DNA of 64,000 nucleotides from Planctomycetota bacterium. GTDB lineage: Bacteria; Planctomycetota; UBA1135; UBA2386. Of this stretch, positions 49,267 through 64,000 are shown one piece after another. How positions within the stretch are numbered: position 1 is the first letter of the stretch; the number at the start of each line of letters is the position of its first letter. The notes beneath the pieces are model-generated. The model had not been told where the DNA came from, did no database searches, and saw nothing but the letters and a program-made list of their open reading frames with translations. The translations under genes and the position numbers were made by a program. Where the stretch lies: contig JBKAGP010000001.1 of the NCBI GenBank assembly GCA_046290465.1, forward strand, positions 2,784,001 to 2,848,000, in the 5' to 3' direction.

Positions 49267-50016
49267 TCAGATCGACAGCTTGCGGAACACGAACGACGGG
49301 ATGTTGCGGATCACGAACATGATCAAGCGCCACTTGCCGGGCACGTAGACGATCGCCTTGCGCCGGTCGCGCGCCTTCAGGATCAGCTCTGCGGCCTTAT
49401 CGGCCGGGATCGCGCCCTTCAGCTGAAGGTCCGCCGTCATCGGCGTTTCGACGAACCCCGGCCGGATCGTCGTGACCTGCACGCCGTGCCGCCAGAGCCG
49501 GTTGCGCAGCGCCTCGAGGTAGGTGTCCATGCCGGCCTTGCTGGCGTTGTAGACCGGGCGGCCGATGCGGCCGCGATCCTGCGCGACCGACGTCACGCCG
49601 ACGATGCAGCCGCGCTTGCGCTGCTGGAACCGCCGCGCCGCCGCGTTGCACCACGCGATCGCACCGAGGAAGTTGACGTGGACCTGCAGGCGGTCCTTGT
49701 CGAGGTCGAACTCGTCCGGACCGACCTCGGGCATCACCCCGGCGACGAAGTGCAGTTCGTCGACGTCGCCGCACTCCTGCTCGATCCGGGCGAACAGCGC
49801 TTCGGCCGCATCGACGTCGGACGCGTCGTGCACGTAGGCCGTGGCGACCTGCTTGCCGAGCGCCTCGTCGATCAGCGCGACCTGGGCCGCGAGTTCGTCC
49901 TGGCGGCGCGCCAGCAGCGCGACCTTGCGACCTTGGCGGGCCAGGCGGCGCGCGACCGCCAGGCCGATGCCGGACGACGCGCCGACGACGATGCAGGTGC
50001 CGTTGCGGGGGCTCAT
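49267..50016 (-). CDS. Short-chain dehydrogenase, DprE2-like
   Basis: GASSGIG, SVA.DRGR, YNASK, RPGFV.TPMT. Confidence 0.85.
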   Translation of the reverse strand: MSPRNGTCIVVGASSGIGLAVARRLARQGRKVALLARRQDELAAQVALIDEALGKQVATAYVHDASDVDAAEALFARIEQECGDVDELHFVAGVMPEVGPDEFDLDKDRLQVHVNFLGAIAWCNAAARRFQQRKRGCIVGVTSVAQDRGRIGRPVYNASKAGMDTYLEALRNRLWRHGVQVTTIRPGFVETPMTADLQLKGAIPADKAAELILKARDRRKAIVYVPGKWRLIMFVIRNIPSFVFRKLSI

Positions 50017-50118
50017 GAGGCCCGAGAGGAGACGCCTCGCACCCGGCGATTGCAACCGCGGCAACGTTCAGCGGCCGCCGCGCTTGCCGGATCGGCGCCC
50101 CGCCTCCATCATCGCGCC

Positions 50119-51138
50119 ATGCGAACGGCGGTCCTCTGTGTGGTGCTTCTCGGTGCGGGCCTCGCGGCGCAGGATCGTCCCGCAGCCGCGCAGCCACAGC
50201 TGCCCAAGCGGCTGTTCGTGGACAGCGTCGTCGCCAGCATCAACGACAGCGCGATCCTGCAGAGCAAGGTGTTCGCGGTGTCGTCCGGCGACATCGTCGG
50301 CAAGGAGAACGAATATGGCGGCCCGCTGCCGCTGCAGGCGATCGCCGACCTGACCGGCCAGGCGCTGCGCAAGCTGATCAGCGACTACCAGATGGCGCAG
50401 TCGGCGCGTTCGTTCGGCAACATCCCGCCCGAGCGCTTCGACATGATCCTCGAGTCGGAGCTCGAGCGCGACAAGGAGGAGCTGCGGCGCGACCTCGGTG
50501 GCTACGGCGAACTCAGCGCCGAACTCGACCGCACCGGCCAGACCTGGCGCACCTACGCCAACGGCAAGAAGATCGAGAAGCTGCAGATGCTCGCCGAGCA
50601 GTTCTCGATCTACGAGCGCCTGCGCAAGCAGTCGAACCTCTACCTGACGCCGCGCATGCTGCGGGAGACCTACCAGCAGGTGCGCGACCAGTTCGTCGGC
50701 CCGGCGCTGGCCCAGGTGTCGCTGGTGACCTTCCGCGGGCCCGACGCGGAGCGGCACGCGAAGGCCGCGTCGGACCTGTGGGCCGACAAGGTGCTGACGG
50801 CGCGCGAGGTCGCCGCCCGCTACGACGGCGCGACGCCGGTGCCGACGCTGCGCGCCAAGGACCTGCAGCCGCGCCTGCGCGACTTCGCGCTGAAGGGCCC
50901 GGTCGGCAACGTGTCGCAGCCGATCCCGCGCGGCAACGGCCTCGTCGACGTCATCAAGGTGATGCAGTACCTGCCGGCCCGGAACGGCCGCTTCGAGGAT
51001 CCCGCCGTGCAGGCGCAGGTCCGCGAGATGGCCACCAACCGGGTGTTCCTCGAGTTCCGTGCGCAGGCGCTCGAGCAGGCCCGCGAACGCACCGAGGTGT
51101 GGATCTACCAGAACGGTCGACGCGTCCCGATGCGCTGA
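50119..51138 (+). CDS. Exported SurA-like chaperone/foldase
   Basis: Signal ending LAAQ; VDSVVASIN...IL.S; degenerate parvulin-like GNVSQPI. Confidence 0.55.
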   Translation: MRTAVLCVVLLGAGLAAQDRPAAAQPQLPKRLFVDSVVASINDSAILQSKVFAVSSGDIVGKENEYGGPLPLQAIADLTGQALRKLISDYQMAQSARSFGNIPPERFDMILESELERDKEELRRDLGGYGELSAELDRTGQTWRTYANGKKIEKLQMLAEQFSIYERLRKQSNLYLTPRMLRETYQQVRDQFVGPALAQVSLVTFRGPDAERHAKAASDLWADKVLTAREVAARYDGATPVPTLRAKDLQPRLRDFALKGPVGNVSQPIPRGNGLVDVIKVMQYLPARNGRFEDPAVQAQVREMATNRVFLEFRAQALEQARERTEVWIYQNGRRVPMR

Positions 51139-51385
51139 CGCAAACTACAACTCACAATTGACTTACGACCAACCCAGGCGACGCTCCCCGACCTGGAAGC
51201 CACCGGCCGTCAGGACTGGCGGTTGCCAGGACGCACCCGGGTCGGTCTACTTTCCCGCCCCTCTCTGAACCTCCCTGCGGATCGGCCCGTTCGACGTGGT
51301 CGCGCCAGCCCTTGGCGCCACACGTCTCCAGGCCATCCAGGCTGCGGCGCCCCAAGCGCCGCGTCCGAATCTCAGGTCCCATAGC

Positions 51386-52918
51386 ATGGTCCATCTCGAC
51401 CCCACCAAGATCCAAGTTCAGTCCAACGCGGCTCCCGTCTGGGAGCAGGAAGAGACCTTCCAGGACATGATGGCCGAGCGCCTCCGCCAGGCGCCGTGGC
51501 TGATTCTCTCGGCGGCCATCCACGCGGTCATCGCGCTGCTGGTGATCGTGCTGATCCCGCCGAAGGAGAAGGAGAAGCCGAAGGCCGTCGTCGAGATGGA
51601 CATCAAGGAGGAGACCCAGATCGAGGAACCGCCTCCGCCGCCGCCGCCGGAGACGAAGACCGAAGAAGTCACGGAAGAGGTCGTCGTCACCGAGACGACG
51701 GTCACCGAGACCGAAGAGGCCTTCGACAACACGGACAGTGAAGAGGTCTCCAAGGAGTCGGCCTTCGACTCGAACCAGTGGAACTCGGCCGTCGGTCTCG
51801 GCGGTGGCGCCGGTGGCCGCTACGGCGGTCGCGGCGGCGGCAAGGGCGGCAAGGGCGGCGGCAAGTCGTACGCGGCTGCCATCGACGCCGGCCTCAAGTG
51901 GCTTGCCAACCACCAGGACGAAGACGGCAAGTGGGACTGCGACGGCTTCATGAAGCACGACCTGGCCGACGGCGGCCAGATCTGCGACGGCCCCGGCAAC
52001 GCGGTCCACGACGTGGGTGTCACCGGCCTCGCGCTGCTCGCCTTCCTCGGCGACGGCAGCACGATGCGTTCGGGCCCCTACAAGGAGAACATCAAGAACG
52101 GCGTCAACTGGCTGCGCAAGCAGCAGCAGGAGAACGGCCTGTTCGGCACCAACGCGTCGCACGACTTCATCTACGACCACGCGATCGCCGCCTATGCGAT
52201 GTGCGAGGCCTACGGCCTGTCGAACTACAAGCTGCTCAAGAAGACCGCCCAGAAGGGCATCAACTACCTCGAGTCGCACCGCAACCCCTACTCGGTGTGG
52301 CGCTACCAGCCGCGAGACAACGACAACGACATCTCGGTGACCGGCTGGTGCATCATGGCCTACGAGTCGGGCGAGTTCTTCGAGCTGCAGATCAACAAGT
52401 CGGCGCTCGACCTGTGCGAGACGTTCCTCGACCAGGTCTCGGACCCGACCGGCAAGCACGGCTACACCAAGCAGGGTGAAGGCAGCTCGCGGAAGCCGGG
52501 CGACCACGGCACCAAGTTCCCGATCGAGAAGGGCGAGGCCCTGACCGCGGTCGGCCTGTTCTGCCGCTTCTTCATGAACCAGGACCCGAAGGAGAAGCCG
52601 ATCATGAAGGCTGCGGCCGACCTGATCCGCAGCAAGCCGCCGGTCTGGGACGAGAAGGGTGGTTCGATCGACCACTACTACTGGTACTACGCCACCTACG
52701 CGCTGTTCCAGTACGGCGGCGCCCACTGGAACGAGTGGAAGAAGAAGCTCGAGTCGTCGGTGGTGAAGAACCAGCACCGCAAGGGTAGCGAGAAGAACCT
52801 GCTCGGCTCGTGGGACCCGATCGGCGCCTGGGGCGAAGACGGCGGCCGCGTCTACTCGACGGCCATCCTCGTGCTGACGCTCGAGGCGTACTACCGTTAC
52901 TCGCGCCTGGTGCGCTGA
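51386..52918 (+). CDS. Membrane-anchored prenyltransferase/squalene-cyclase-repeat (alpha/alpha barrel) protein
   Basis: TM (SAAIH), Pro/Glu and Gly linkers, GLKWLA.HQ..DG.W, TGLALLAFLG, Y.HAIA..A.CEA, YYWYY, GGRVYSTA. Confidence 0.85.
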   Translation: MVHLDPTKIQVQSNAAPVWEQEETFQDMMAERLRQAPWLILSAAIHAVIALLVIVLIPPKEKEKPKAVVEMDIKEETQIEEPPPPPPPETKTEEVTEEVVVTETTVTETEEAFDNTDSEEVSKESAFDSNQWNSAVGLGGGAGGRYGGRGGGKGGKGGGKSYAAAIDAGLKWLANHQDEDGKWDCDGFMKHDLADGGQICDGPGNAVHDVGVTGLALLAFLGDGSTMRSGPYKENIKNGVNWLRKQQQENGLFGTNASHDFIYDHAIAAYAMCEAYGLSNYKLLKKTAQKGINYLESHRNPYSVWRYQPRDNDNDISVTGWCIMAYESGEFFELQINKSALDLCETFLDQVSDPTGKHGYTKQGEGSSRKPGDHGTKFPIEKGEALTAVGLFCRFFMNQDPKEKPIMKAAADLIRSKPPVWDEKGGSIDHYYWYYATYALFQYGGAHWNEWKKKLESSVVKNQHRKGSEKNLLGSWDPIGAWGEDGGRVYSTAILVLTLEAYYRYSRLVR

Positions 52919-52941
52919 TCGCAGCAGCAAGGCCCAATCGC

Positions 52942-52979
52942 AAACGGCTCGCGTCCCTCACGGGGACGCGAGCCGTTTT
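52942..52979. terminator. Intrinsic, probably bidirectional terminator
   Basis: AAACGGCTCGCGTCCC-TCACG-GGGACGCGAGCCGTTTT between convergent genes. Confidence 0.8.
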
Positions 52980-53006
52980 GCGTTGGTGGCCGACGCATCC
53001 GAACGG

Positions 53007-53507
53007 CTACCAACCCCACGTGCCCGGCGCGCCCTTGAAGCCGCGCTCACCGCCCTGGATCCAGCTGGTGATCCAGCCACCGTAGAAGTCGCCGGCCTGC
53101 CGCACGACCCGTTCGCCGTCGACCTCGCACAGGTCGAGCTGCGCCGCGTAGAAGGCCAGATGGCCGCGCAGCGCCGCAAACGTGCGCCGCGGCGCCTCGT
53201 AGGTCCAGGCGACCGCCTGCAGCGGGCGCTGCCCGGGCAACTGCAGGTCGAGGTAGCTCGCCAGCCCCTTCCACTCACAGGCCGTCACCTGCCGGCGGCT
53301 CGGCCGCAGCGCGGCGCGCGCGGCGCCGGTCAGCGACGCCAGCGGCAGGTAGTAGGTCGGCGGGTGCGAGGTCTCGAGCACCCGGTAGGCCTCGGTCGCC
53401 TGGACCAGCTCGATGCCCGCGTGTTCGATCCGGACGCTGCCGGCGAACCGCTCCAGCCGTGGCGGCCGCGGGTAGTCCCAGACATTCTCCTTCACACGGT
53501 GCCGCAT
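53007..53507 (-). CDS. DUF427 domain protein
   Basis: ENVWDYPRPP, VLETSHPPTYY, CEWKG.A.Y, AWTY, Q.GDFYGGWIT, FKG.PGTWGW. Confidence 0.9.
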   Translation of the reverse strand: MRHRVKENVWDYPRPPRLERFAGSVRIEHAGIELVQATEAYRVLETSHPPTYYLPLASLTGAARAALRPSRRQVTACEWKGLASYLDLQLPGQRPLQAVAWTYEAPRRTFAALRGHLAFYAAQLDLCEVDGERVVRQAGDFYGGWITSWIQGGERGFKGAPGTWGW

Positions 53508-53518
53508 GACCCCGCATC

Positions 53519-53545
53519 TTCGTTCCGGAGCTGCCAACGGATGCA
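53519..53545 (-). promoter_or_regulatory. SigK-like ECF promoter, copy 1
   Basis: Minus strand TGCATCCG-ttggcagctccggaa-CGAA, 11 nt before ATG 53507. Confidence 0.6.
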
Positions 53546-53575
53546 CCAAACTGCGAACATCCTACGATTGGCGGC

Positions 53576-53764
53576 ATGCGTGACGAGGCGAGCTACGTGT
53601 GCGACTCGTGCGGCGAGGACATCGTCGTGCCGATCGACTGGTCGGGCGGCGCGCGGCAGAGCTACGTCGAGGACTGCCCGGTCTGCTGCAACCCCAACGT
53701 GATCCACGTCGAGCTCGACCACGGCGAGGCCTACGTGCGCAGCGAGCCCGAACAGGATCGCTGA
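53576..53764 (+). CDS. CPXCG-motif cysteine-rich protein
   Basis: C.SCGE, Q.YVEDCPVCC.P. Confidence 0.85.
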   Translation: MRDEASYVCDSCGEDIVVPIDWSGGARQSYVEDCPVCCNPNVIHVELDHGEAYVRSEPEQDR

Positions 53765-53768
53765 GCGC

Positions 53769-54638
53769 TCACCGCCGCCACAGCTGCCGCGCCAGCAGGC
53801 GGACCGACTCGACCGGGTCGTCGCGCAGCGTCGCGCGAAGCCGGGCGTCGACCGGCCACGACGTCCGCCAGCGCTGCAGCACCTCGAAGCGGACCACCGG
53901 GTCGGCGTCCCGCAGGCCGACGCGTGCGTCGTACGGCCCGAACTCCGGCAGCCGCGCTTGCAGCATGCCGACGTGCAGCGTGCGCCGATCGATCGCGTCT
54001 CCGCGCAGCGCCTCCTGCAGGGGCTTGCCGAGCACCTCGTCGAACGCCTCCGGCGCCGGCGCGGCACCCGACCGTTCGCCGCCGATGGCGAGCCACTCGG
54101 ACATCGCCGCCACCCGCTGCTGCTGCTCCAGCGCCTGCGCCGCCTCGACCTCGCGACGATACTGCTCGTCGAGCTCGGCACGCTGTTCTGCGGTCAACGG
54201 CGGCTGGTGCGCCGGCAGGTCGAACAGCGAACGCCCGAGCCACGAGCCGGTGAATGCCACCGGCGTCCACACGGCGCGGAACGGCAGCCACGCCAGCTCG
54301 GTATAGTCGGACTCTTCGAAGTCGAACGACTCGTCGCGCCAGACCAGACCGGCGTCGTTCCAGGCGTCGTCGACGACCTGGATCGGATGCGCGACCAGCG
54401 TGTCGGTCAGGATCGCGCCGAGGCCGATCGGCACGGTCACCGGCAGCGTCGCGAAGAACCAGCCGTCGCCCTCGGGCACGACGTTCTGCTCGAACGCGTT
54501 CCAGACCGGCCGGTTGTCGGGGTTGGACCAGGCGCACGATGACAGCGACAGCAGCGCGCCCGACAAGATGAGGCGATGCCAAAGGAGGCGATACCAGACG
54601 CAACGACGCCTGACGACAGGATGCAGCAACGCCTTCAT
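53769..54638 (-). CDS. Hypothetical lipoprotein with C-terminal HEAT-like repeats
   Basis: Lipobox LSSC; N-terminal domain paralogous to next gene; D.DP.VR repeats; ATGA coupling. Confidence 0.6.
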   Translation of the reverse strand: MKALLHPVVRRRCVWYRLLWHRLILSGALLSLSSCAWSNPDNRPVWNAFEQNVVPEGDGWFFATLPVTVPIGLGAILTDTLVAHPIQVVDDAWNDAGLVWRDESFDFEESDYTELAWLPFRAVWTPVAFTGSWLGRSLFDLPAHQPPLTAEQRAELDEQYRREVEAAQALEQQQRVAAMSEWLAIGGERSGAAPAPEAFDEVLGKPLQEALRGDAIDRRTLHVGMLQARLPEFGPYDARVGLRDADPVVRFEVLQRWRTSWPVDARLRATLRDDPVESVRLLARQLWRR

Positions 54639-55126
54639 CGCGTCCCCTCCCGTGCTTCGCCGGACTGGCCACCGGACTCGTCACCGGCGCGATCGCCGAC
54701 CGGCTCGTCGTCGTTGGCGTAGTCGTCGTCGGCGTAGTCGTGGTCGTCGATGTCGAACACCGAACGGAACACCCAGTCGACGCCGAACACGACCGGCGTC
54801 GCCAGCGCCGACAACGGCGTCAGCAGCACGGTGCGGAAGTTGGAGTCGTGGTCGAACTCCCACAGCAGATCGGCCGTGTCCCACCACGCATCGTCGAGCT
54901 GCGACAGCGGGTGCACGACGACCGCGTCGGCCGCGCCCGCGACCAGGCCGACCGGCAGCGCGATCGGCGCCGCCAGCCAGCGCCCCGTCTCGCTCGACGG
55001 AGCGACGTGTTCGTCCAGCTGGTTGAGCAGCAGGCGGCGATCGGGATTGGCGATCGCGCAGCTCGCCAGCGAGGCCAGAACGAGCATCGCCGCGCATCGG
55101 TTCATTCGCGACTGGTGGTTCTTCAC
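54635..55126 (-). CDS. Hypothetical lipoprotein, paralog of neighbour
   Basis: Lipobox LASC; NPD.R, D..VVHP...DDAW.D, TPV.F..W..RS.FD; acidic tail; alternative ATG 55105. Confidence 0.6.
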   Translation of the reverse strand: MKNHQSRMNRCAAMLVLASLASCAIANPDRRLLLNQLDEHVAPSSETGRWLAAPIALPVGLVAGAADAVVVHPLSQLDDAWWDTADLLWEFDHDSNFRTVLLTPLSALATPVVFGVDWVFRSVFDIDDHDYADDDYANDDEPVGDRAGDESGGQSGEAREGTR

Positions 55127-55293
55127 GACGCGAGCCTACGCGACAGAACCTGCGCGAAGAAGTGATCCGCGCCGCGATCCGGCCCGTTGACAGGATGCAT
55201 CGGGCCACCGCGGTTGCGCGGCGACGACGCCGTGCGGGTTGGCCCGAACGCACACGAACGCGCGCCCACGAGAGCGCGCAGGAGAAGTCCCTC

Positions 55294-56817
55294 ATGCAGA
55301 CGTCCGCGCTACCGGTCCGTACCCACCGCTTCGAGAACGACGAGAGCTTCCAGGAGATGATGGCCGCGCGGCTGCGGCAGTCGCCGTGGCTCTTGCTATC
55401 GGTCGGCGTGCACGCGGTGTTGCTGTTGTTGGTCTGGGTGCTGATCCCTCCCGAGGCGGCCAGGAAGCCGAGCACGCAGATCACGTTACAGCAGCCCGAG
55501 GACAACCCGGTCGAGCCGCCGCCGCCGCCGGAGAAGCCGGAGGTCAAGCCCGAGGTCGACCCGGACGTCACACCGATCGACGATCCGGTCGTCAACGAGA
55601 ACCCGGTCGAGAGCGACAACCCGTCGGACGCGGACAGCTCCGACATGTCGACCGAATCGGCGTTCACGTCGGACCAGTGGAACACGGCGCTCGGCATGGG
55701 CGGCGGCGCCGCCGGTCCCTACGGCAACCGCGGCACCGGCGGCGGCGGCGGCAGCGGCGGACACCGTCCGATCCCGACCGTGCAGCGCGGGCTCGAGTGG
55801 CTCGCCGCGCACCAGGACGAGGACGGTCGCTGGGACGCCGACGGCTTCATGAAGCACGACGACCCGGCGCTGGCGCCGTGTGACGGGCCCGGCAACGGCG
55901 CGCACGACGTCGGCTGCACTGGCCTTGCGCTGCTCGCGTTCCTCGGCGAGAACAACACGACCAAGTCGGGCCCCTACAAGGACAACGTGCGCCGCGGCAT
56001 CAACTGGCTGCGCAGCCAGCAGGACCCGACCACCGGCCTGTTCGGCGGCAGGACCACGCACGACTTCATCTACGACCACGCGATCGCCGCCTACGCGATG
56101 TGCGAGGCGTTCGGCCTGTCGGACTCGAAGGTGCTGAAGAAGTTCGCGCAGCGCGGCATCGACTACCTCGAGGCGCACCGCAACGGCTACTCCGTGTGGC
56201 GCTACCAGCCGCAGGACCAGGACAACGACATCTCGGTCACGGGCTGGGCGGTGATGGCCTACAAGTCGGGCAAGTTCTTCGGGCTGACGATCAACGAGGA
56301 CGCGATGAAGAACGCCGCGGTATTCCTCGATCAGGTCAGCGACGGCACCGGCCGCCACGGCTACCAGAAGGCCGGCGAAGGCAGCTCGCGCAAGAAGGGC
56401 GACCACGGCGTGAAGTTCCCGGCCGAGAAGACCCACGCGCTGACCGCGGTCGGCCTGTTCTGCCGGTTTTTCCTCGGCCAGGACCCGAAGGAGACGCCGA
56501 TCATGGGCGCGTCGGCGAAGCTGATGAACACGCTGCCGCCGGTGTGGGACGAGCAGTCCGGCGCGATCGACCACTACTACTGGTACTACGCGACCTACGC
56601 GCTGTTCCAGATGGGCGGCACCGAGTGGCGCCGCTGGCAGAAGGCGATCGACAAGGTCGTGCCCAAGAACCAGCACCAGCAGCGCTCGCAGAAGAACCTC
56701 TACGGCTCGTGGGATCCGGTCGGCGCGTGGGGCGACGACGGCGGCCGCGTCTACTCGACGGCGATCCTGACGCTGACCATGCAGGCCAACTACCGCTACA
56801 CGCCGTTCGTGCGCTGA
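55294..56817 (+). CDS. Second prenyltransferase/squalene-cyclase-repeat membrane protein (paralog of 51386)
   Basis: FQEMMA.RLRQ.PWL, HDFIYDHAIAAYAMCEA, DNDISVTGW, IDHYYWYYATYALFQ, GGRVYSTAIL. Confidence 0.85.
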   Translation: MQTSALPVRTHRFENDESFQEMMAARLRQSPWLLLSVGVHAVLLLLVWVLIPPEAARKPSTQITLQQPEDNPVEPPPPPEKPEVKPEVDPDVTPIDDPVVNENPVESDNPSDADSSDMSTESAFTSDQWNTALGMGGGAAGPYGNRGTGGGGGSGGHRPIPTVQRGLEWLAAHQDEDGRWDADGFMKHDDPALAPCDGPGNGAHDVGCTGLALLAFLGENNTTKSGPYKDNVRRGINWLRSQQDPTTGLFGGRTTHDFIYDHAIAAYAMCEAFGLSDSKVLKKFAQRGIDYLEAHRNGYSVWRYQPQDQDNDISVTGWAVMAYKSGKFFGLTINEDAMKNAAVFLDQVSDGTGRHGYQKAGEGSSRKKGDHGVKFPAEKTHALTAVGLFCRFFLGQDPKETPIMGASAKLMNTLPPVWDEQSGAIDHYYWYYATYALFQMGGTEWRRWQKAIDKVVPKNQHQQRSQKNLYGSWDPVGAWGDDGGRVYSTAILTLTMQANYRYTPFVR

Positions 56818-57070
56818 CGCGCGAACGGTCTCGCGTCGGGACGCCGTCGCATTCCGGGTCCCGGTGCCCGACCGGAAATGCGGCGGCCGTCCCGAAACGC
56901 GTCACCGGATAAACCCCGATTCCACCCCGACATGCGCCCTTGCCACCGGGGCGCCGCGCGATCGCCTCGGAAGTTTCCTGAAGTAGGACTCAAGCGATTG
57001 CCGATGGGTTTGGCAACAGGGTGCCGGACCTACCGCCGCGGCGCCCAAGCCAAGAGATCGAGGAGGACTG

Positions 57071-57901
57071 ATGGGCCTGCGGGTCAATTCGAATATCGCA
57101 TCCCTGAACGCACAGCGCTCGCTGTCGACGACGACCGAGCGCCTGCAGGCGAACTACCGCCGCCTGTCGACGGGTCTGCGAATCTCCACCGCGTCGGACG
57201 ACGCCGCCGGTCTCGCGATCTCGGAGCGCTTCCGCGCCCAGATCCGTTCGACCAACCAGGCGATCCGGAACGCACAGGACGGCATCTCGCTGACGCAGAC
57301 CGGGGAAGGCGCGCTGAACGAGGTCAGCTCGATCCTGATCCGAATGCGAGAACTGTCGATCCAGGCGAGCAACGGCACGGTCAGCGACGCCGACAAGGCG
57401 ACGCTCAACCAGGAGTTCGCCGACCTGATCAACGAGATCGACCGGATCGCGCAGTCGACCACGTTCAACGGCGTGCGGCTGCTCGACGGCACCGGCTCGA
57501 CGCTGACCTTCCAGGTCGGCACCGGCACGACCAGCGGCATCGACACGATCCAGCTGAGCACGTCGGACACGCTGGCGTCGACGCTCGGCCTGTCGACGCT
57601 CGACATCGGCTCCGGCGGCGCGCCGACCCTCGCGGTCTCGCTGCTCGACGACGCGATCAACGCGGTCAGCCGCGTGCGCGGCCAGTTCGGCGCGGCCCAG
57701 AACCGCCTGTCGACGACGATCGCCAACCTGCAGATCCAGTCCGAGAACCTGAGCGCGGCCGAGTCCCGCATCCGCGACGTCGACGTCGCCGTCGAGACCT
57801 CGGCGCTGACCAGGAACTCGATCCTGCAGCAGGCCGCGATCTCGATCCTGGCCCAGGCCAACACGCAGCCGCAGGCCGCCCTGACGCTGCTGCAGGGCTA
57901 A
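57071..57901 (+). CDS. fliC: Flagellin (short, D0/D1 only)
   Basis: RVNSNIASLNAQR, RLSTGLRI..ASDDAAGLAI, NAQDGIS, GAAQNRL, ESRIRDVD.A.E, LAQAN; AGGAGG RBS. Confidence 0.97.
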   Translation: MGLRVNSNIASLNAQRSLSTTTERLQANYRRLSTGLRISTASDDAAGLAISERFRAQIRSTNQAIRNAQDGISLTQTGEGALNEVSSILIRMRELSIQASNGTVSDADKATLNQEFADLINEIDRIAQSTTFNGVRLLDGTGSTLTFQVGTGTTSGIDTIQLSTSDTLASTLGLSTLDIGSGGAPTLAVSLLDDAINAVSRVRGQFGAAQNRLSTTIANLQIQSENLSAAESRIRDVDVAVETSALTRNSILQQAAISILAQANTQPQAALTLLQG

Positions 57902-57930
57902 GCCGCCCTAGCTCGCGCGGGTGCGCGCGA

Positions 57931-58194
57931 TCAGCTCATCGCGTTGACCGCCTTCATCGCCAGGCCCTTGCGGCGCGAGGCGGTGTGGCGGTGGATGACG
58001 TTCTGCTTGGCCGCCTTGTCGATGCACTTGCAGACCAGCGTCAGCATCTCCTGCGCCTTGCTCTTGTCGCCGGCTTCGACCGCGGCGAACAGCTTCTTGG
58101 TCTCGGTCTTCATGCGGCTCATCCGCGCCTTGTTGTCGACGCGCTTCTTCTCGGTCGTGCGGATGCGCTTGATCGCTTGCTTGCTGTGGGCCAT
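57931..58194 (-). CDS. rpsT: 30S ribosomal protein S20
   Basis: MAHSKQAIKRIR...N....S.MKT..KK, IDKAA...VIH..TASRRK. Confidence 0.95.
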   Translation of the reverse strand: MAHSKQAIKRIRTTEKKRVDNKARMSRMKTETKKLFAAVEAGDKSKAQEMLTLVCKCIDKAAKQNVIHRHTASRRKGLAMKAVNAMS

Positions 58195-58265
58195 CGCTTG
58201 GTTTCTCGGCTCTATCTCTGACTAAGGGAGGTTGGGTTGAGGCAATCGTGGGTGCGCCGGGCGGA

Positions 58266-59594
58266 TCAGCCCTTCAGCGCCTCCACCTTCTTGGCGACAT
58301 CGCGGAAGCCGATGTCTTGTTCGAGGATCTTGGTGAAGTGGCGCAGGGCGTCGTCGTTCTTGCCCTGGGCCTCGCAGATGACGCCCATCTCGTAGAGCGC
58401 CTCCTTCTGCCGTGCGCCGCCCGCCGCCAGCGCCTTCTCGTACTGGCCGAGGGCGAGGTCGTGCAGGTCCTTCTGCTGGAACGCCTGCCCGAGCAGGAAC
58501 GTCGCGTCGGTCTTCTTGCGCGGGTCCTTGACGGCCTGCTGCAGCTCGGCGATCGCGTCGTCGAGCTCGCCGGCCTCGAGCAGGCCGGCGCCCAGGTCGA
58601 AGCGGGCCCCGAGGTCCGACGGGTTGCGCTCGACGCGACGGCGGGCCTCGCCGACGCGCAGCTGGCCGAGCGCCTGACGGGCGCGGTTGGCCGCCGCCTC
58701 GTCGCCGCGCTTCAGCGCCTTCTGCACCATCTGCTCCTGCAGACGGATGCGCAGGTCGCTGGCGACCTCGAGCAGTTCGCCGTCGTCCGGGTTCTTCTGC
58801 AGCAGCTGCTCGATCAGGTCGAGCGCGCCGCGCAGGTCCTTGGCCATCTCGCGCAGCCGCGCGCAGCGGCGCAGCAGCTTCTCGTCGCCGGGGGTCTCCT
58901 GCAGCTGGTTCTCCAGCTGCTGGAGCTCCTCCTCGACCTCCTCGGCCGACAGCTGCAGGCGCTCCTGGCGCTCGAGCTGCTTCTGCCGGGTCTTGTCCTT
59001 GATCAGGTCGCGCGAACTCTCGGCCTTCTCGATGCCGGTGCTCGCCAGCGCGCCCTCGGCCGCGAGGTTCTTGCGCGCCTTCAGCGACTCCTGGTCGCGC
59101 GGGTCGACCTTGAGCGCCTGCTCATACATCTCGAGGGCTTCGTTGAGCTTGCCGTGCTCGTAGTAGAGCGCGCCGGCCGCGCGGCAGGCTTCGAGGCAGC
59201 GCGGCTGCACCTCGGCGTAGGCCGCGTAGACCGCCAGCGCCGACCGGGTGTGGCCGGCCCGCTCGAGCGAGTTGCCGAGCTTGAGGTTGGCTCCCTCGGC
59301 CGCCGGATCGAACGTCAGGTAACGCTCGTACGACTTCGCCGCGCCGCCGTGCGCGCCGACCAGACGCTGCAGGCCACCGACCAGCAGGTTGACCCCGCCG
59401 AACAGCATCGCCGTCAACTTCGACGGCGGCTTCTGCGCGGCCTTCTGGAACAGCGCCTTGCGCAGTCCGGCGCGGGCCTCGCCGAAGTCCGGCTGGATCG
59501 ACAGCACCTGGCCGTAGATCTTGACGGCCATCGCGTAGTTGCGTCGCTTGACGGCGTCGGCCGCCTGCTCGAGGTACTTGCTGAGATCCACCAT
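58266..59594 (-). CDS. Tetratricopeptide repeat protein
   Basis: Multiple TPRs (A..Y..AL..DP), C-terminal DIGFRDVA. Confidence 0.82.
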   Translation of the reverse strand: MVDLSKYLEQAADAVKRRNYAMAVKIYGQVLSIQPDFGEARAGLRKALFQKAAQKPPSKLTAMLFGGVNLLVGGLQRLVGAHGGAAKSYERYLTFDPAAEGANLKLGNSLERAGHTRSALAVYAAYAEVQPRCLEACRAAGALYYEHGKLNEALEMYEQALKVDPRDQESLKARKNLAAEGALASTGIEKAESSRDLIKDKTRQKQLERQERLQLSAEEVEEELQQLENQLQETPGDEKLLRRCARLREMAKDLRGALDLIEQLLQKNPDDGELLEVASDLRIRLQEQMVQKALKRGDEAAANRARQALGQLRVGEARRRVERNPSDLGARFDLGAGLLEAGELDDAIAELQQAVKDPRKKTDATFLLGQAFQQKDLHDLALGQYEKALAAGGARQKEALYEMGVICEAQGKNDDALRHFTKILEQDIGFRDVAKKVEALKG

Positions 59595-59766
59595 GGAGGT
59601 CTAGGGAACGCCCGCCCGCCGCGGGGCTGCCAGGCCGTCGAACGGGGTCCCGGCGAGTGGGCCGGGATTCGGGTCCGGGGACTGCTTGACGCGGGCGAAA
59701 GGGCGGAACAATCTACCGTCCGAGCCCGGGCCCCGCAACGTGGCTCCGGCCCCGACCGCAAATCCC

Positions 59767-60279
59767 ATGGAAGTCCTGATCTACCCCGACCCGATCCTTC
59801 GCCGCGGCGGCCAGCCGATCACCGAATTCGACCAGGACCTGGCCGACCTGGCCGACCGGATGATGGCGGCGATGTACGAGGAGGGCGGCGTCGGCCTGGC
59901 TGCCCCCCAGGTCGGCATCGAGCAGAAGCTGCTGGTGCTCAACCCCAGTGGCAGCAAGGACGACCGCTCGGGTGAACGGGTGCTCTGCAACCCCAAGATC
60001 GTGCGCAAGAAGAAGTGGGAGTTCGGTGAGGAGGGCTGTTTGTCGTTCCCGGGCATCCAGGCCGAGGTCGAGCGCTCGGTCGAGATCACGGTCGCCTACC
60101 AGGACCTGAAGGGCGAGGAGCAGCAGCTCAAGTGCGACGGCTGGCTGGCCCGGATCGTGCAGCACGAGATCGACCACCTCGAGGGGGTGTTTTTCGTCGA
60201 TCGCCTGACCGCAACCGAGAAGCTGCGGGTCAAGCAGCAGCTGCTCAGGCTCGAAGACGACTTCAAGGCCCGCGCCTGA
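59767..60279 (+). CDS. def: Peptide deformylase
   Basis: YPDPILR, GVGLAAPQVG, EGCLS, QHEIDHL. Confidence 0.96.
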   Translation: MEVLIYPDPILRRGGQPITEFDQDLADLADRMMAAMYEEGGVGLAAPQVGIEQKLLVLNPSGSKDDRSGERVLCNPKIVRKKKWEFGEEGCLSFPGIQAEVERSVEITVAYQDLKGEEQQLKCDGWLARIVQHEIDHLEGVFFVDRLTATEKLRVKQQLLRLEDDFKARA

Positions 60280-60304
60280 GCTCCCGGGCGACGGCCGCAC
60301 GACC

Positions 60305-61414
60305 ATGAGACTCGTCGAAGGCCTCGACGCGCTGCGCGACCTGGACCTGCTGTCGGTCTACGGCGCCGACTCGTCCGACAGCCACTCGGTGGTCGCCGTC
60401 GGCGTGTTCGACGGGGTGCACCTCGGCCACCACCGGCTGCTGCACCAGCTGCTCGAGATGGCGTCGTCGCTGCAGGGCATGCCGACGGTGGTGACGTTCG
60501 CCAACCACCCGGACCAGGTGCTGCGCGGCGATGCGCCGCCGCTGATCTGCAGCGTGCCGCACCGCCTGCGCCTGCTGCGGCGCGCCGGGGTGCTGCGGCT
60601 GGTGCTGCTGCAGTTCGAGCCGCGCCTGCAGAACATGACTGCCCGCGAGTTCGCCGAGGACGTGCTGATCGGCCGCCTGCGCGCGCGCGGGCTGCTGCTC
60701 GGCTACGACTCGGCGATGGGCAAGGACCGCGAGGGCACGCCCGAACGCTTCGGCGAGCTCGGCCGCGAGCTCGGCTTCGAGGTGCAGAGCGGCCAGCCGT
60801 TCGAGCTGGACGGCAAGCCGGTGTCCTCGACCGCGATCCGCGAGGCGATCGCCGCCGGCGACCTGGCCACCGCGCGCCGCTACCTCGGCCGCTTCCCGGG
60901 CGCGCTCGGCGAGGTCGTGCACGGCGACGCGCGCGGCCGCACGATCGGCTTCCCGACCGCCAACGTCGCGCTGCAGAACGGAGCGCTGCCGCCGACCGGT
61001 GTCTACGCGGTCGAAGCCGTCGTCGACGGCGAGACCTTCGCCGCGGTGGCCAACCTCGGCACGCGCCCAACGTTCGGCGACGGTGAGCCGAGCCTCGAGG
61101 TGCACCTGCTCGACTTCACCGGCGACCTCTACGGCCGCGAGCTCGAGGTGACGTTCCGCCAGGTGCTGCGCGAGGAGCGCCGCTTCGACGGCATCGACGA
61201 GCTCAAGGCGCAGATCGGCCGCGACGTCGCCGCGGCGCGCGCCTGCCTGAAGGCCTGGAGGACCGCTGCTCAATCGAGCAGCTTGGCGACCACCTCGCCG
61301 ACGCGCTCGATCTCGTCGAGGCCGGCCTGCGCGCCGAGCACCTGGTGCAGGTCCTTGACCACCCCGAACGGGTGGCCGCCGAGCAGGATCGGCCGCGCCG
61401 TCTCGTCGCCATAG
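60305..61414 (+). CDS. ribF: Bifunctional riboflavin kinase/FAD synthetase
   Basis: GVFDGVHLGH, VSSTAIR, GRTIGFPTAN, NLGTRPTF, LEVHLLDF; 3' end overlaps the convergent gene by 145 nt. Confidence 0.92.
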   Translation: MRLVEGLDALRDLDLLSVYGADSSDSHSVVAVGVFDGVHLGHHRLLHQLLEMASSLQGMPTVVTFANHPDQVLRGDAPPLICSVPHRLRLLRRAGVLRLVLLQFEPRLQNMTAREFAEDVLIGRLRARGLLLGYDSAMGKDREGTPERFGELGRELGFEVQSGQPFELDGKPVSSTAIREAIAAGDLATARRYLGRFPGALGEVVHGDARGRTIGFPTANVALQNGALPPTGVYAVEAVVDGETFAAVANLGTRPTFGDGEPSLEVHLLDFTGDLYGRELEVTFRQVLREERRFDGIDELKAQIGRDVAAARACLKAWRTAAQSSSLATTSPTRSISSRPACAPSTWCRSLTTPNGWPPSRIGRAVSSP

Positions 61415-62343
61415 ACCGAACCGCAGACGGCGCGCACCTGCGCGACCGCGTCGCGCACACCGTGCAGGTGCAGCAGCATGCTGGCCGACATCGCGATCGC
61501 GTCGACCTTGCGATCCTGCAGCGCCCAGGCGAGATCGCTCGCCGGCATGTTGGGCCCGAGGTGGTGCACCGCGTAGCCCTCGAGCTGCAGGCGCTGGCCG
61601 ATCATGCGCAGGCCGAGGTCGTGCAGGTTGCCGGCGACGCCCATCGTCATCACGACCTTGGCGTCGGCCGGGGGCCGCGGGATCGCCTCCTGCAGCAGAC
61701 CCAGCGCGCGTTCGACGATCGCGGTGCCGTAGTGCTCGTCGGCGATCGGGATCTCGGCCATCAGCCACATCCGGCCGGCCTCGCGCTGCGCCGGACGCAG
61801 CACGTGGTCCTGGACCTCCTGCACCGGCACGCCTTCCTGCAGCGCGCCGCGCACCAGATCGAGCGCGTCCTCGCCACGGTTCTCGAGATTGGCGAGCAGG
61901 AACCGCATCGCGGCCTCGCCGTGCGGCGCGTCCTTGGACAGCAGCATCGGCAGGTCGGTCGGCGCGTGCTCGAGGCCGTCGGCAGCGGCGGCGACGTGCT
62001 GCCGCACCAGCGCGAACGACTCGCGCGGCATCTCGCGTTCGAGCGTCTTCTCGATCGCCTGCAGCGTCGCCGGCAGGTAGTCGGCCGGCACGTCGCGGTG
62101 ATGGAACGCGACCTTGTACCAACTCAGCACGTCGTGCAGCAGTTCGGGGCGGTCGACCGAGACGCTGGCCGCGATCTGCAGCAGGCGCACCTCGAGATCG
62201 TCGATCGGGAGCGCAAACGTCGCGGGCAGCGCCGCGTCGACCAGCGACGGACGCGCCGCCTGCAGCGTGTGCAGGGTCGCGTTCGCGTAGGCACGCGCCG
62301 ACGAGCGCAGCAGTCCGGCGGTGAAATCCTGGGCCGAGGGCAT
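61270..62343 (-). CDS. Cobalamin-binding photoreceptor-like protein (globin-like N-domain, CarH-type cap, B12 Rossmann domain); photocobilin-like
   Basis: G.MW-x9-EH (WLMAEIPIADEH), GNLHDLG, LGPNMP, AMSAS, LLGG; no HTH. Confidence 0.8.
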   Translation of the reverse strand: MPSAQDFTAGLLRSSARAYANATLHTLQAARPSLVDAALPATFALPIDDLEVRLLQIAASVSVDRPELLHDVLSWYKVAFHHRDVPADYLPATLQAIEKTLEREMPRESFALVRQHVAAAADGLEHAPTDLPMLLSKDAPHGEAAMRFLLANLENRGEDALDLVRGALQEGVPVQEVQDHVLRPAQREAGRMWLMAEIPIADEHYGTAIVERALGLLQEAIPRPPADAKVVMTMGVAGNLHDLGLRMIGQRLQLEGYAVHHLGPNMPASDLAWALQDRKVDAIAMSASMLLHLHGVRDAVAQVRAVCGSVYGDETARPILLGGHPFGVVKDLHQVLGAQAGLDEIERVGEVVAKLLD

Positions 62344-62359
62344 GCTCGAATTAAAGCCT

Positions 62360-62386
62360 TTCGCGACCTGCAAACCTACGGATGCA
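62360..62386 (-). promoter_or_regulatory. SigK-like ECF promoter, copy 2 (towards B12 protein)
   Basis: Minus strand TGCATCCG-N12-TCGCGAA. Confidence 0.65.
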
Positions 62387-62421
62387 GGCAATCCAAACGG
62401 CCGCAAAGCGCGATTCCGCCG

Positions 62422-62448
62422 TGCATCCGCGGCCTTTTCGATCGCGAA
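62422..62448 (+). promoter_or_regulatory. SigK-like ECF promoter, copy 3 (towards fasciclin)
   Basis: TGCATCCG-N12-TCGCGAA. Confidence 0.65.
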
Positions 62449-62537
62449 CTCCGCGGCGGCCGGGATCGACCGGCCACGCATTGGAAACGAATCGAGAGAG
62501 AGACCGAGAGAACCCACCGCCCCCTCAGGAGCCAACC

Positions 62538-63437
62538 ATGAAGACCATCCAGATGTTCGCCTGCGCCACGGCGCTGCTCGCCGCCAACGCCGTCGCCCAA
62601 GGCCCGACGGACAGCCCGACGATCGTCGACGTCGCCGCCAAGGCCGGCAAGTTCAACACGCTGCTGGCCGCCGCCAAGGCCGCCGGCCTCGCCGACACCC
62701 TGGCCGGCAAGGGGCCGTTCACGGTGTTCGCGCCGACCGACGCCGCCTTCGCCAAGCTCGGCAAGGACACGATCGCCGACCTGCTGAAGCCGGAGAACAA
62801 GGACAAGCTCGCCGGCATCCTGACCTACCACGTCGTCGCCGGAAAGTTCACGGCCGCCAAGGTCGTCGGCATGAAGAGCGCGCAGACGGTGCAGGGTGCG
62901 CCGCTGTCGATCGTCGTCAAGAACGGCAAGGTCAAGGTCGCGGACGCCAACGTCGTCAAGACCGACGTGATGGCCAGCAACGGCGTGATCCACGTCATCG
63001 ACTCGGTCATGCTGCCGCCGGAGCCGAACCTGGTCGAGGTCGCCGCCAAGGCCGGCACGTTCAAGACGCTGCTGACCGCCGCCAAGGCCGCCGGCCTCGC
63101 CGACACGCTTGCCAACGGCGGGCCGTTCACGATCTTCGCCCCGACCGACGAGGCGTTCGCCAAGGTCGGCCAGGCGACGATCGCCGACCTGCTCCGCCCG
63201 GAGAACAAGAAGAAGCTGCAGGCGATCCTGAAGCACCACGTGGTCGCGGGTTCGGTCATGTCGGCCACCGCCGTCAAGCTCAGCGAGGCCAAGACGCTCA
63301 ACGGCACCAAGCTGCCGCTGAAGTACGACGCCAAGACCAAGACGCTGCGCGTCGGCGCCGGCAAGGTGGTCGCCGCGGACGTCAAGGCCCGCAACGGCGT
63401 CATCCACGTCGTCGATACGGTCCTGCTGCCCAACTGA
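62538..63437 (+). CDS. Secreted protein with two fasciclin (FAS1) domains
   Basis: AGGAG RBS; signal ending AVAQ; two copies of GPFT.FAPTD.AF, IL.YHVV, NGVIHV.D.V. Confidence 0.93.
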
Positions 63438-63491
63438 TCCGCCAATGAGGACGGCGACGTGTCCGCGACGAATCCCTTGTGTGCCGCCGGT

Positions 63492-63518
63492 TCTCGACCT
63501 GTAATCAACAGGTCGAGA
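63492..63518. promoter_or_regulatory. Perfect 11-bp inverted repeat 9 nt upstream of the sigma start codon
   Basis: TCTCGACCTGT-AATCA-ACAGGTCGAGA. Confidence 0.5.
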
Positions 63519-63527
63519 CCCCGCACG

Positions 63528-64000
63528 ATGCAAAGCTTGCTCCCACAGATCGCAACTGGTGACCCAGCTGCCGTCGAGGCATTCCTCAAACGGCACTCGG
63601 GCATGGTCTGGGGACTGGCCCGCCGCTTCTGCCGCAATGCGGAGGACGCGGAGGACGCCACCCAGGAGATCTTCGTCGACGTCTGGCGCAGCGCCGCCCG
63701 CTACGACGAGAACGCCGGCAGTGAAGTCACGTTCTTGATGACGATCGCGCGGCGACGGTTGATCGACCGCGCGCGTCGCCTCGGTCGGCGGATCTCCGCC
63801 GACCTGCTCGAAGACCCGACCACGATCGCCAGCCCGGCATCCAAGGACCAGGTCGAGCTGCACGACGAAGTCGCCCGTGCCCAGGACGCGCTCGAGAAGC
63901 TGCGTCCCGAGCAGCGGGAAGTGCTCGATCTGGCGCTCGGTCAGGGTCGCACCCATCAAGAGATCGCCGCATCGATCGGCATCCCGCTAGGAACCGTCAA
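63528..64000 (+). CDS. ECF sigma factor, SigK-like (runs off window end; absent from ORF track)
   Basis: Manual translation MQSLLPQIATGDPAA...DAEDATQEIFVDVWRSAARYD..GSE.TF.MTIARRRLIDR...L.PEQREVL.LA..QG.THQEIA...GIPLGTV. Confidence 0.9.
   Translation, partial: MQSLLPQIATGDPAAVEAFLKRHSGMVWGLARRFCRNAEDAEDATQEIFVDVWRSAARYDENAGSEVTFLMTIARRRLIDRARRLGRRISADLLEDPTTIASPASKDQVELHDEVARAQDALEKLRPEQREVLDLALGQGRTHQEIAASIGIPLGTV

Follow-up and report, generated by a model that had tools for sequence, protein, structure and literature searches.

In the genome of an uncultured Planctomycetota bacterium (GTDB lineage UBA1135; UBA2386), the gene of a photocobilin-type B12 protein stands head-to-head with a fasciclin gene and the gene of a SigK-like extracytoplasmic function (ECF) sigma factor. 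We analysed a window of 64,000 nucleotides (nt) that holds this locus (assembly GCA_046290465.1, contig JBKAGP010000001.1, positions 2,784,001-2,848,000, forward strand); the source genome is 6.59 Mb in one contig and 94% complete. On balance we favour a reading in which the SigK-like sigma factor recognises about 15 promoter boxes in front of photo-oxidative repair genes and the photocobilin would gate SigK by direct binding. Such a system is likely a LitS/SigK-type photo-oxidative regulon in which light enters by protein contact instead of through a CarH repressor. Photocobilins, the SigK-RskA-fasciclin unit, the LitR-LitS pair and the photo-oxidative gene set are each already known singly; what is likely new is the wiring of a photocobilin that lacks a helix-turn-helix (HTH) domain as the probable input to a SigK-type sigma factor. 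A literature search, made mostly without subscription papers and with the ECF supplement in part, found no photoglobin or photocobilin acting on an ECF sigma factor; what is said below of published systems follows the accessible parts of the cited papers. The known B12 light sensors act on transcription either by a DNA-binding domain of their own (CarH/LitR) or by way of a partner that is a repressor (AerR), and the accessible literature on stand-alone photocobilins offers structures and no cellular output. The locus is a candidate output for photocobilins and a candidate input for SigK-RskA in a widespread uncultured planctomycete order, and the window adds a mapped genome-wide regulon with controls. 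If the reading is right, the SigK family would gain a defined input signal, and the pair would make a two-gene, DNA-operator-free optogenetic switch for compact transcription control by green or red light.

The window contains three copies of the promoter box GCATCC-N16-CGAA; 0.19 are expected, and none of 100 shuffles gave as many. A sequence-only reading had placed these copies before a DUF427 gene, the B12 protein gene and the fasciclin gene, and we recovered all three at those coordinates and in that orientation, each pointing into its gene (Table 1). The two back-to-back copies lie 35 nt apart and share TGCATCCG-N12-TCGCGAA, again as first described. The TCG extension of the −10 box was rejected as a conserved feature, as it is not kept in five near relatives. 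The promoter facing fasciclin and sigK is present in 19/19 related loci, and the core of its two boxes is kept across six aligned regions. Feedback on the photocobilin gene, which had also been proposed, agrees here with a predicted SigK box before the gene, but such a box was found in only 7 of the 19 related loci. DUF427 likewise has its box here and is a peripheral regulon member, with a homologue in 2 of 34 related genomes and a box upstream of one of those two. DUF427 membership and the feedback promoter are lineage-restricted. The 69 sites collected from 40 loci give TGCATCCR ... GCGAA, in which the core letters were fixed by the search pattern. Contigs from two RNA or presumed RNA sequencing runs begin at 62467 and 62485 over fasciclin and sigK, and none covers the photocobilin gene; as they stop at no one place and a contig does not reveal a transcription start, we base no claim on them.

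The box is not confined to the window. Genome-wide, with 4,882 genes called (ribF and some correct starts escaped the caller), there are 37 exact N16 sites, of which 19 are intergenic and at most 300 nt from a start; each of the 17 other spacer lengths between 8 and 25 gave 1-7 such sites. Within 40 nt of a gene start there are 12 sites at N16 versus 0-3 at the same 17 spacers. In nine of the 12 the gap to the start codon is 8-12 nt, so the leaders would be very short. Correction of starts adds two sites, before a lipoprotein-like MsrB (14 nt) and a 69-amino acid (aa) hydrophobic open reading frame (13 nt). The enrichment upstream of genes that the sequence-only reading had asked for was therefore found, at N16 only, and with about 15 copies the box is a genome-wide promoter signal.

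The genes behind it suggest what the signal is for. Exact boxes precede a class II photolyase (TIGR00591 E 1e-101, below the cut-off of the model), glutathione peroxidase, MsrB, a TIGR01777 protein, an SRPBCC protein, an SDR, DUF6435, a CIA30-fasciclin, a beta-propeller protein, an unknown lipoprotein-like protein, DUF427 and the photocobilin, and boxes with N15 or N17 stand before DCC1, DUF4397 and a third fasciclin. Carotenoid, photolyase or msr genes had been named as targets that would support the idea; photolyase and MsrB carry boxes. A dedicated carotenoid target was rejected: this genome offers just two neighbouring genes of the squalene/phytoene-synthase family, and the site list has no exact box upstream of them. 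Of the distant targets tested, photolyase is the most constant. Among its orthologues in 28 genomes, 15 have a box upstream and no other spacer gave more than 1, the box is absent before the photolyase of the one SigK-negative genome that has this gene, and photolyase itself occurs in 24/24 family genomes with the module versus 1/5 without it. By strict count, 15 SigK-positive genomes gave 104 sites at N16 versus 40 at N19, and five SigK-negative genomes gave 11 versus 9. Across 59 related loci, 10 of 25 motif-bearing host genes have homologues beside sigK or the photocobilin gene, versus 12 of 500 random genes; two of the 10 are fasciclin paralogues. The enriched motif, the photolyase and MsrB targets and the rskA gene found after the sigma gene support the first interpretation of the locus. 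SigK very probably reads the box, and the regulon is quite probably photo-oxidative.

Several observations were made beside these targets. In 11-19 of 60 loci a cluster of CMAS, amine oxidase, DUF1295, DUF1365 and desaturase genes lies beside the module, frequently with a divergent box pair in front; the CMAS/DUF1365/amine-oxidase cluster was not found in the own genome. Similar genes belong to the singlet-oxygen RpoE regulon of Rhodobacter sphaeroides (PMC7074977). We take genes of this CMAS/DUF1295/DUF1365 type to serve furan fatty acid synthesis, and they are presumably also present in the mycobacterial sigK operon. An exact box lies 28 nt before a succinate dehydrogenase/fumarate reductase operon (L018 1555-4975), which may be a target or chance. 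A 6-pyruvoyl-tetrahydropterin-synthase-like gene and folE (L032 1536-2683) stand behind a one-mismatch box (CGAT) at 9 nt; folE2 is a member of the Rhodobacter RpoE regulon (PMC7074977). Two class II photolyase-like genes lie in tandem behind a box in another genome (G004 C1 5372287-5375089). A gene for the cobalamin adenosyltransferase PduO (G000 C1 5030231-5030731) is about 3 kb from the photolyase target, which may be chance.

The gene following fasciclin had been called a SigK-like sigma factor, and it does encode an ECF sigma factor with Mycobacterium tuberculosis SigK as its best PDB match (4NQW, E 1e-21). It scores 140 bits with the NCBIfam SigK model, below the cut-off of 226, and lacks the sigma4 cysteine pair of mycobacterial SigK (ECF19s2) and ECF18: the positions of Cys133 and Cys183 are Ala and Met, and C35 is its sole cysteine. 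This pair does not define ECF19 as a whole, a group with 0.62% Planctomycetes (PMC7826278). No second SigK-like gene above 29% identity was found in the genome. The box matches the ECF18/ECF19 promoter type (GCATC at −35; CG(T/A)A or CVGAA at −10). ECF18 promoters are given as TGCATCTT/CGTA, and the LitS motifs are described as in agreement with M. tuberculosis SigK (PMC7826278); the LitS consensus is GCATCCR-N15-CVGAAD (PMC11519972). The proposed match to the mycobacterial SigK promoter is thereby documented through the related LitS (PMC11519972, PMC7826278 supplement), but the accessible texts did not contain the exact mycobacterial consensus. In 12 of 50 loci, each from a near relative, a second putative promoter, TTG-N20-TGTAAT, precedes the sigK ATG by 19-23 nt; the 11-bp hairpin over this region (63477-63516; z −2.96) is not kept in all relatives. 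The conservation of TTG-N20-TGTAAT suggests basal expression of sigK-rskA, in which case control would sit at the protein level, and this fits a sensor without a DNA-binding domain.

The sensor had been described as a DNA-binding-less B12 light sensor. [quoted passage not shown] No MerR-type DNA-binding domain was found by Pfam, residues 1-125 fold as a globin, and the NCBIfam CarH model gives 43.7 bits against a cut-off of 400. The domain order is reversed, with the globin first and the CarH-type B12 module after it. Among solved structures, photocobilins and CarH-type domains rank best by sequence, with a weak alignment of residues 1-116 to the biliverdin domain at the C terminus of photocobilins. 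An AlphaFold model built with 85 sequences reached a predicted local distance difference test score (pLDDT) of 96.3 and a predicted template modelling score of 0.91. Photocobilins are its top structural matches: residues 139-356 superpose on SasPcob (8J2W) with Z 25.8 and a root-mean-square deviation (rmsd) of 1.9 over 207 residues, and residues 1-125 on allophycocyanin (8OR7) with Z 14.4 and rmsd 2.5 over 123; the match of the model to AerR (7TE2) has Z 21.4. Foldseek listed B12-domain matches only and did not show the globin, and a protein-atlas search with residues 1-130 (best 0.87) gave leads only.

GxxW/EH/GxxH/GxxxP is a validated signature of B12 light sensing (PMC11796333), and its residues G190/W193, E203/H204, G238/H241 and G263/P267 are invariant in 85/85 close homologues. 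The acidic residue of the E/DxH motif, which is not part of this validated SignatureFinder signature, is Asn in 70 and Asp in 15 of the 85. Asp270 and Trp296 contact biliverdin in SasPcob (PMC10979010); D49 and W75 align to them (a numbering offset of 6 was fixed by Trp61) and are kept in 84/85 and 85/85 close homologues, respectively. A bilin-linking Cys is absent, the position being P46. Adenosylcobalamin (AdoCbl) could be supplied by the adenosyltransferase PduO, found in 5/5 genomes. The family is large and its members stand alone, 147 of the best 150 representatives having at most 442 aa. Globin-first order is mentioned among photoglobins, where the accessible text shows no ECF or RskA context (PMC8717448), and photocobilins holding B12 only still respond to green light (PMC10979010). 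In all likelihood the protein is a B12 (adenosylcobalamin) photoreceptor. A second, diverged globin+B12 protein with W-x9-EH (L061 5052-6101; G000 C1 5993052-5994101) has no adjoining sigma gene and no box.

The photocobilin gene keeps close company with sigK. It is head-to-head with (fasciclin)-sigK in all 19 related loci, sigK itself being seen in 18, as one contig ends earlier. In an order-wide sample of 121 genomes (photocobilin threshold E <= 1e-15), 47 have a photocobilin and 47/47 of these a SigK orthologue, and in the own family (f1) 28 of 33 genomes have both and five neither; relatedness among the genomes makes these co-occurrence counts overstate independence, which tells against leaning on them. 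The two genes lie at most 10 kb apart in 38 of the 47 genomes, divergent in 18, tandem in 10 and convergent in 10, and with three arrangements the linkage has survived rearrangement. It is more constant than that of any target except fasciclin. Ten genomes have a SigK orthologue (E < 1e-38) and no photocobilin; eight of them carry an HTH-bearing B12 protein (one MerR by Pfam, seven judged by eye), one has a MetH-like match only and one is undecided. Phylum-wide, photocobilin is present in 26 of 251 genomes, and 8 of 22 short flanks show sigK/rskA, cfa, photolyase, fasciclin, SRPBCC or the box.

An anti-sigma factor had been expected beyond position 64000, and the gene directly after sigK indeed encodes a 241-aa RskA_C protein. 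Its start overlaps the sigma-gene stop by 4 nt, it has one hydrophobic stretch from about residue 89, and it is the sole RskA_C match in the genome. A structure predicted from the single sequence (pLDDT 54) was left unused. We surveyed rskA in 41 sigK loci of photocobilin-bearing genomes. It is kept, as far as contigs reach, in 33, cut to a cytoplasmic piece of 75-93 aa in three (L066, L069, L070) and absent in five. In L047 and L054 sigK runs straight into tRNA-Phe, and 11 other loci have rskA between the two. In genome G025 the photocobilin gene occupies the rskA slot with the same 4-nt overlap with sigK, and in G088 it starts 23 nt after sigK. RskA_C was not found in G025, G088 or G001, nor did a single protein query find it in the genomes of L047, L053 and L054; a second sigK, accompanied by a full RskA, is present in G052, and G115 shows a weak RskA match elsewhere. 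The eight loci with loss or truncation do not form one clade (p-AU 2.5e-5; 48 rows, L045 and L078 left out). Among Cys-less SigK, 23% have abnormal RskA (PMC7509140). The rate in photocobilin loci (8/41, 20%) is at this background and rskA loss alone does not show substitution; we dropped it as sole proof that photocobilin replaces RskA.

Some loci differ in detail. The rskA gene lies upstream of sigK in L076 and L087. Besides a full RskA, L087 encodes an N-terminal copy of 80 aa, and L076 has a MerR-type CarH beside the module. L053 shows an apparent decayed rskA remnant after 4262, overlapping the sigK stop. A SOUL heme-binding gene with its own box stands right after rskA in L056 (2632-3480) and L059 (2688-3533), with a possible link to the ligand of the globin. 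In L001, just past the window, the tRNA-Phe gene (4917-4992) directly follows rskA, and then come a phage-type integrase (5131-6201) and an inserted element. Of 14 loci scanned, 13 have the module anchored at tRNA-Phe.

A mechanism may be proposed from these data. The weak internal promoter would supply basal SigK and RskA. In the dark, AdoCbl-loaded photocobilin would bind SigK as a second, soluble anti-sigma factor beside the membrane-bound RskA. Green light, and red light too if a bilin is bound, would break the Co-C bond and change the oligomer, as is established for SasPcob and CarH. Once freed, SigK would transcribe fasciclin-sigK-rskA, photolyase, glutathione peroxidase, msrB and further targets, most of them with very short leaders, and in the own lineage it would also transcribe the photocobilin gene, restoring the off state. 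We favour inhibition of SigK in the dark because the photocobilin gene behaves like that of an anti-sigma factor: it lies behind sigK in tandem loci, is kept where rskA is gone and here has a SigK box. A complex prediction for SigK(1-175) with the photocobilin scored 0.45 (best of three controls, 0.00). For calibration, 116 of 157 solved complexes passed the mark, as did 2 of 215 mismatched pairs; passing scores of 0.60 or less comprise just 18 of the 157 solved complexes and both passing mismatches. The runs agree in at least 22% of contacts with a partner pLDDT of at least 83, and the prediction lends weak support to contact between SigK and photocobilin; taken with the genomic prior it shifts the odds slightly and is no proof. 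We think it probable that photocobilin controls SigK output, and the sigma factor would then be under light control. That it acts by binding SigK as an inhibitor is a tentative proposal, and it is with similar reserve that we picture the B12/bilin photoreceptor as a light-gated anti-sigma factor that holds SigK in the dark, releases it in the light and can replace RskA outright.

A number of findings weigh against this reading. The own genome keeps a full RskA, the rate of rskA loss is at background, and one of eight loci without photocobilin (L078) is also without rskA. Photocobilin and sigK are apart in 9 of 47 genomes, and the box facing photocobilin is missing in 12 of 19 related loci. Of the box itself, two exact sites precede genes without an evident stress role (an sdhC-like operon and an SMI1/KNR4 protein), 13 of 28 photolyase orthologues have none, and genome G096, in which the search found no SigK, has 5 N16 versus 0 N19 sites. 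Among 32 more distant photocobilin members W75 alone is invariant and D49 is replaced in several. No source of a bilin was found: heme oxygenase and HemS were each found in 0/25 genomes (82-95% complete), and no ferredoxin-dependent bilin reductase was found in the own genome. The ligand of the globin may be a tetrapyrrole that arises by a route with no known heme oxygenase.

The photocobilin could instead be a target or companion of the SigK regulon and not its controller. Proteolysis of RskA, set off by singlet-oxygen or envelope damage, would then free SigK, and the B12 protein would protect, store or recycle light-damaged cobalamin or signal to another partner. It has its own SigK box here as other targets do, other targets also cluster beside sigK, and the retention of RskA in 33 of 41 loci, the background rate of rskA loss and the nine genomes with separated genes fit such a role. 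Against this, the photocobilin gene is linked to sigK more constantly than any target bar fasciclin, also tail-to-tail and without a box, takes the rskA slot in G025 and G088, and gives way to HTH-bearing B12 regulators in 8 of 10 SigK genomes that lack it; we regard this explanation as rather unlikely. The sense of the interaction could also be the opposite, lit photocobilin activating or stabilising SigK, or pulling the RskA N-terminal domain off SigK as an anti-anti-sigma factor. RskA can itself activate SigK, and its cytoplasmic piece suffices for inhibition (PMC7509140), so the 75-93 aa pieces in L066, L069 and L070 would need a cytoplasmic antagonist; AerR, which modifies CrtJ by binding, is a precedent (PMC5362033). 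Yet photocobilin is kept beside sigK in five loci without rskA, where an anti-anti-sigma factor has no target, and we consider either variant unlikely.

Two further explanations concern the signal and the sigma factor. Sensing of redox state, heme or B12 supply in place of light would agree with the failure to find known bilin-making enzymes in 25 genomes, with the box-bearing SOUL gene after rskA in L056 and L059 and with a PpaA/AerR-like protein reported to be redox-responsive (PMC10734443). It is made quite improbable by the complete AdoCbl photoreceptor signature in 85/85 homologues, by photolyase as the most constant distant target tested and by the green-light response of B12-only photocobilins (PMC10979010). 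Finally, the genome has 141 first-look ECF candidates and one Cupin_7 (ChrR-like) domain, and another ECF sigma factor might read the box, its presence at the sigK locus then being cross-regulation. We consider this very improbable, as the box precedes the sigK unit in 19/19 loci, is not enriched in 4 of 5 SigK-negative genomes and matches the LitS consensus (PMC11519972), and no other SigK-like gene exceeds 29% identity.

With the photocobilins SasPcob and AbPcob (8J2W, 8J2X, 8J2Y; PMC10979010) and the photoglobin-B12 family (PMC8717448) the protein shares the B12 cap and Rossmann domains, W-x9-EH and the His ligand, as well as a phycobiliprotein-like globin of five or six helices with the Asp270/Trp296 equivalents, no bilin-linking Cys and a stand-alone build without HTH. 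It differs from SasPcob and AbPcob in its N-terminal globin and in the frequent Asn of E/DxH, and from the photocobilins described in the accessible texts in having an ECF sigma/RskA pair as its genomic partner (PMC10979010, PMC8717448); no heme oxygenase was found in the host. The closeness of a B12 photoreceptor gene to a SigK-type ECF gene recalls LitR(CarH)-LitS of Streptomyces (ECF19s4) and LitS of Burkholderia multivorans (ECF18s6). Common to these are a near-identical promoter, photolyase and cyclopropane-synthase-like targets and the frequent absence of RskA (PMC11519972, PMC7826278). LitR, however, is a MerR-type DNA-binding regulator of litS transcription, whereas the photoreceptor here has no DNA-binding domain, and the −10 GAA is one base closer to the −35 box here than in the LitS promoter.

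Like the mycobacterial SigK-RskA-MPT70/MPT83 system with its mpt83-sigK-rskA cassette (PMC7509140), the locus has the order fasciclin-sigK-rskA, a one-helix RskA_C and a putative promoter before sigK; unlike mycobacterial SigK (ECF19s2), the sigma factor lacks the Cys133/Cys183 redox pair, falls below the NCBIfam cut-off and has a photocobilin attached. The signal for SigK-RskA is described as obscure, and the fasciclins mpk70/mpk83 of Mycobacterium kansasii are light-induced (PMC9861118). The target set resembles the RpoE-ChrR singlet-oxygen regulon of Rhodobacter sphaeroides in photolyase, fasciclin, cfaS-like and RSP_1090/1091-like genes and an SDR, and the wider singlet-oxygen response of that organism in glutathione peroxidase and Msr (PMC7074977). 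The anti-sigma factor here is of the RskA type instead, a dedicated photoreceptor is linked, and the host is not known to be phototrophic; in place of a ChrR cupin anti-sigma factor at +1 we found RskA_C, the sole Cupin_7 match lying 3 Mb away. AerR-CrtJ (PMC5362033) is similar in that a stand-alone B12 photoreceptor acts on transcription through a protein partner, but this partner is a DNA-binding repressor and not a sigma factor, and AerR has no globin domain.

Table 1. Features of the SigK-photocobilin locus (positions of the window unless stated otherwise)
Feature	Position	Strand	Basis or remark
DUF427 protein, 162 aa	53007..53495	-	PF04248 E 2.6e-26; peripheral target gene
Predicted SigK promoter of DUF427, TGCATCC-N16-CGAA	53519..53545	-	ends 23 nt before called start
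Photocobilin-type protein, 357 aa: photoglobin (1-125), four-helix cap, Rossmann B12 domain	61270..62343	-	Pfam, PDB sequence matches 8J2Y/8J2W, AlphaFold
Phycobiliprotein-like globin domain, residues 1-125, D49 and W75	61969..62343	-	structural match to allophycocyanin 8OR7
Predicted SigK promoter of photocobilin gene (feedback site)	62360..62386	-	16 nt before B12 protein gene
Predicted SigK promoter of fasciclin-sigK-rskA (autoregulatory site)	62422..62448	+	89 nt before fasciclin
Secreted two-domain fasciclin (FAS1), MPT70/MPT83/RSP_1409-like	62538..63437	+	PF02469 x2, E 2e-75; N-terminal signal-like stretch
Likely weak housekeeping promoter for sigK-rskA, TTG-N20-TGTAAT	63477..63505	+	overlaps 11-bp hairpin
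SigK-like ECF sigma factor, 188 aa	63528..64000, runs 94 nt past window end (L001 3528-4094)	+	4NQW best PDB match
rskA, 241 aa	L001 4091-4816 = genome C1 2848091-2848816		RskA_C PF10099 E 7e-15; just outside window

DUF427 is a distant target 8 kb off, not a clustered member. The genes between 53576 and 61264 encode a CPXCG protein, two unknown proteins, a squalene-cyclase-like protein, flagellin, S20, a TPR protein, deformylase and RibF; no exact GCATCC-N16-CGAA site was found at them, and they are outside the SigK-photocobilin system. RibF, which adjoins the photocobilin gene, was rejected as part of the module: it is syntenic in five near relatives only and has no box, and we ascribe its position to chance. 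An Rfam scan of 50000-64000 gave no matches. Two paralogous proteins of about 510 aa are encoded 2.4 kb apart (51386-52918 and 55294-56817), both with an N-terminal hydrophobic stretch and squalene-hopene-cyclase-like repeats. The flagellin gene (57071-57901) is short (276 aa) and isolated among unrelated genes.

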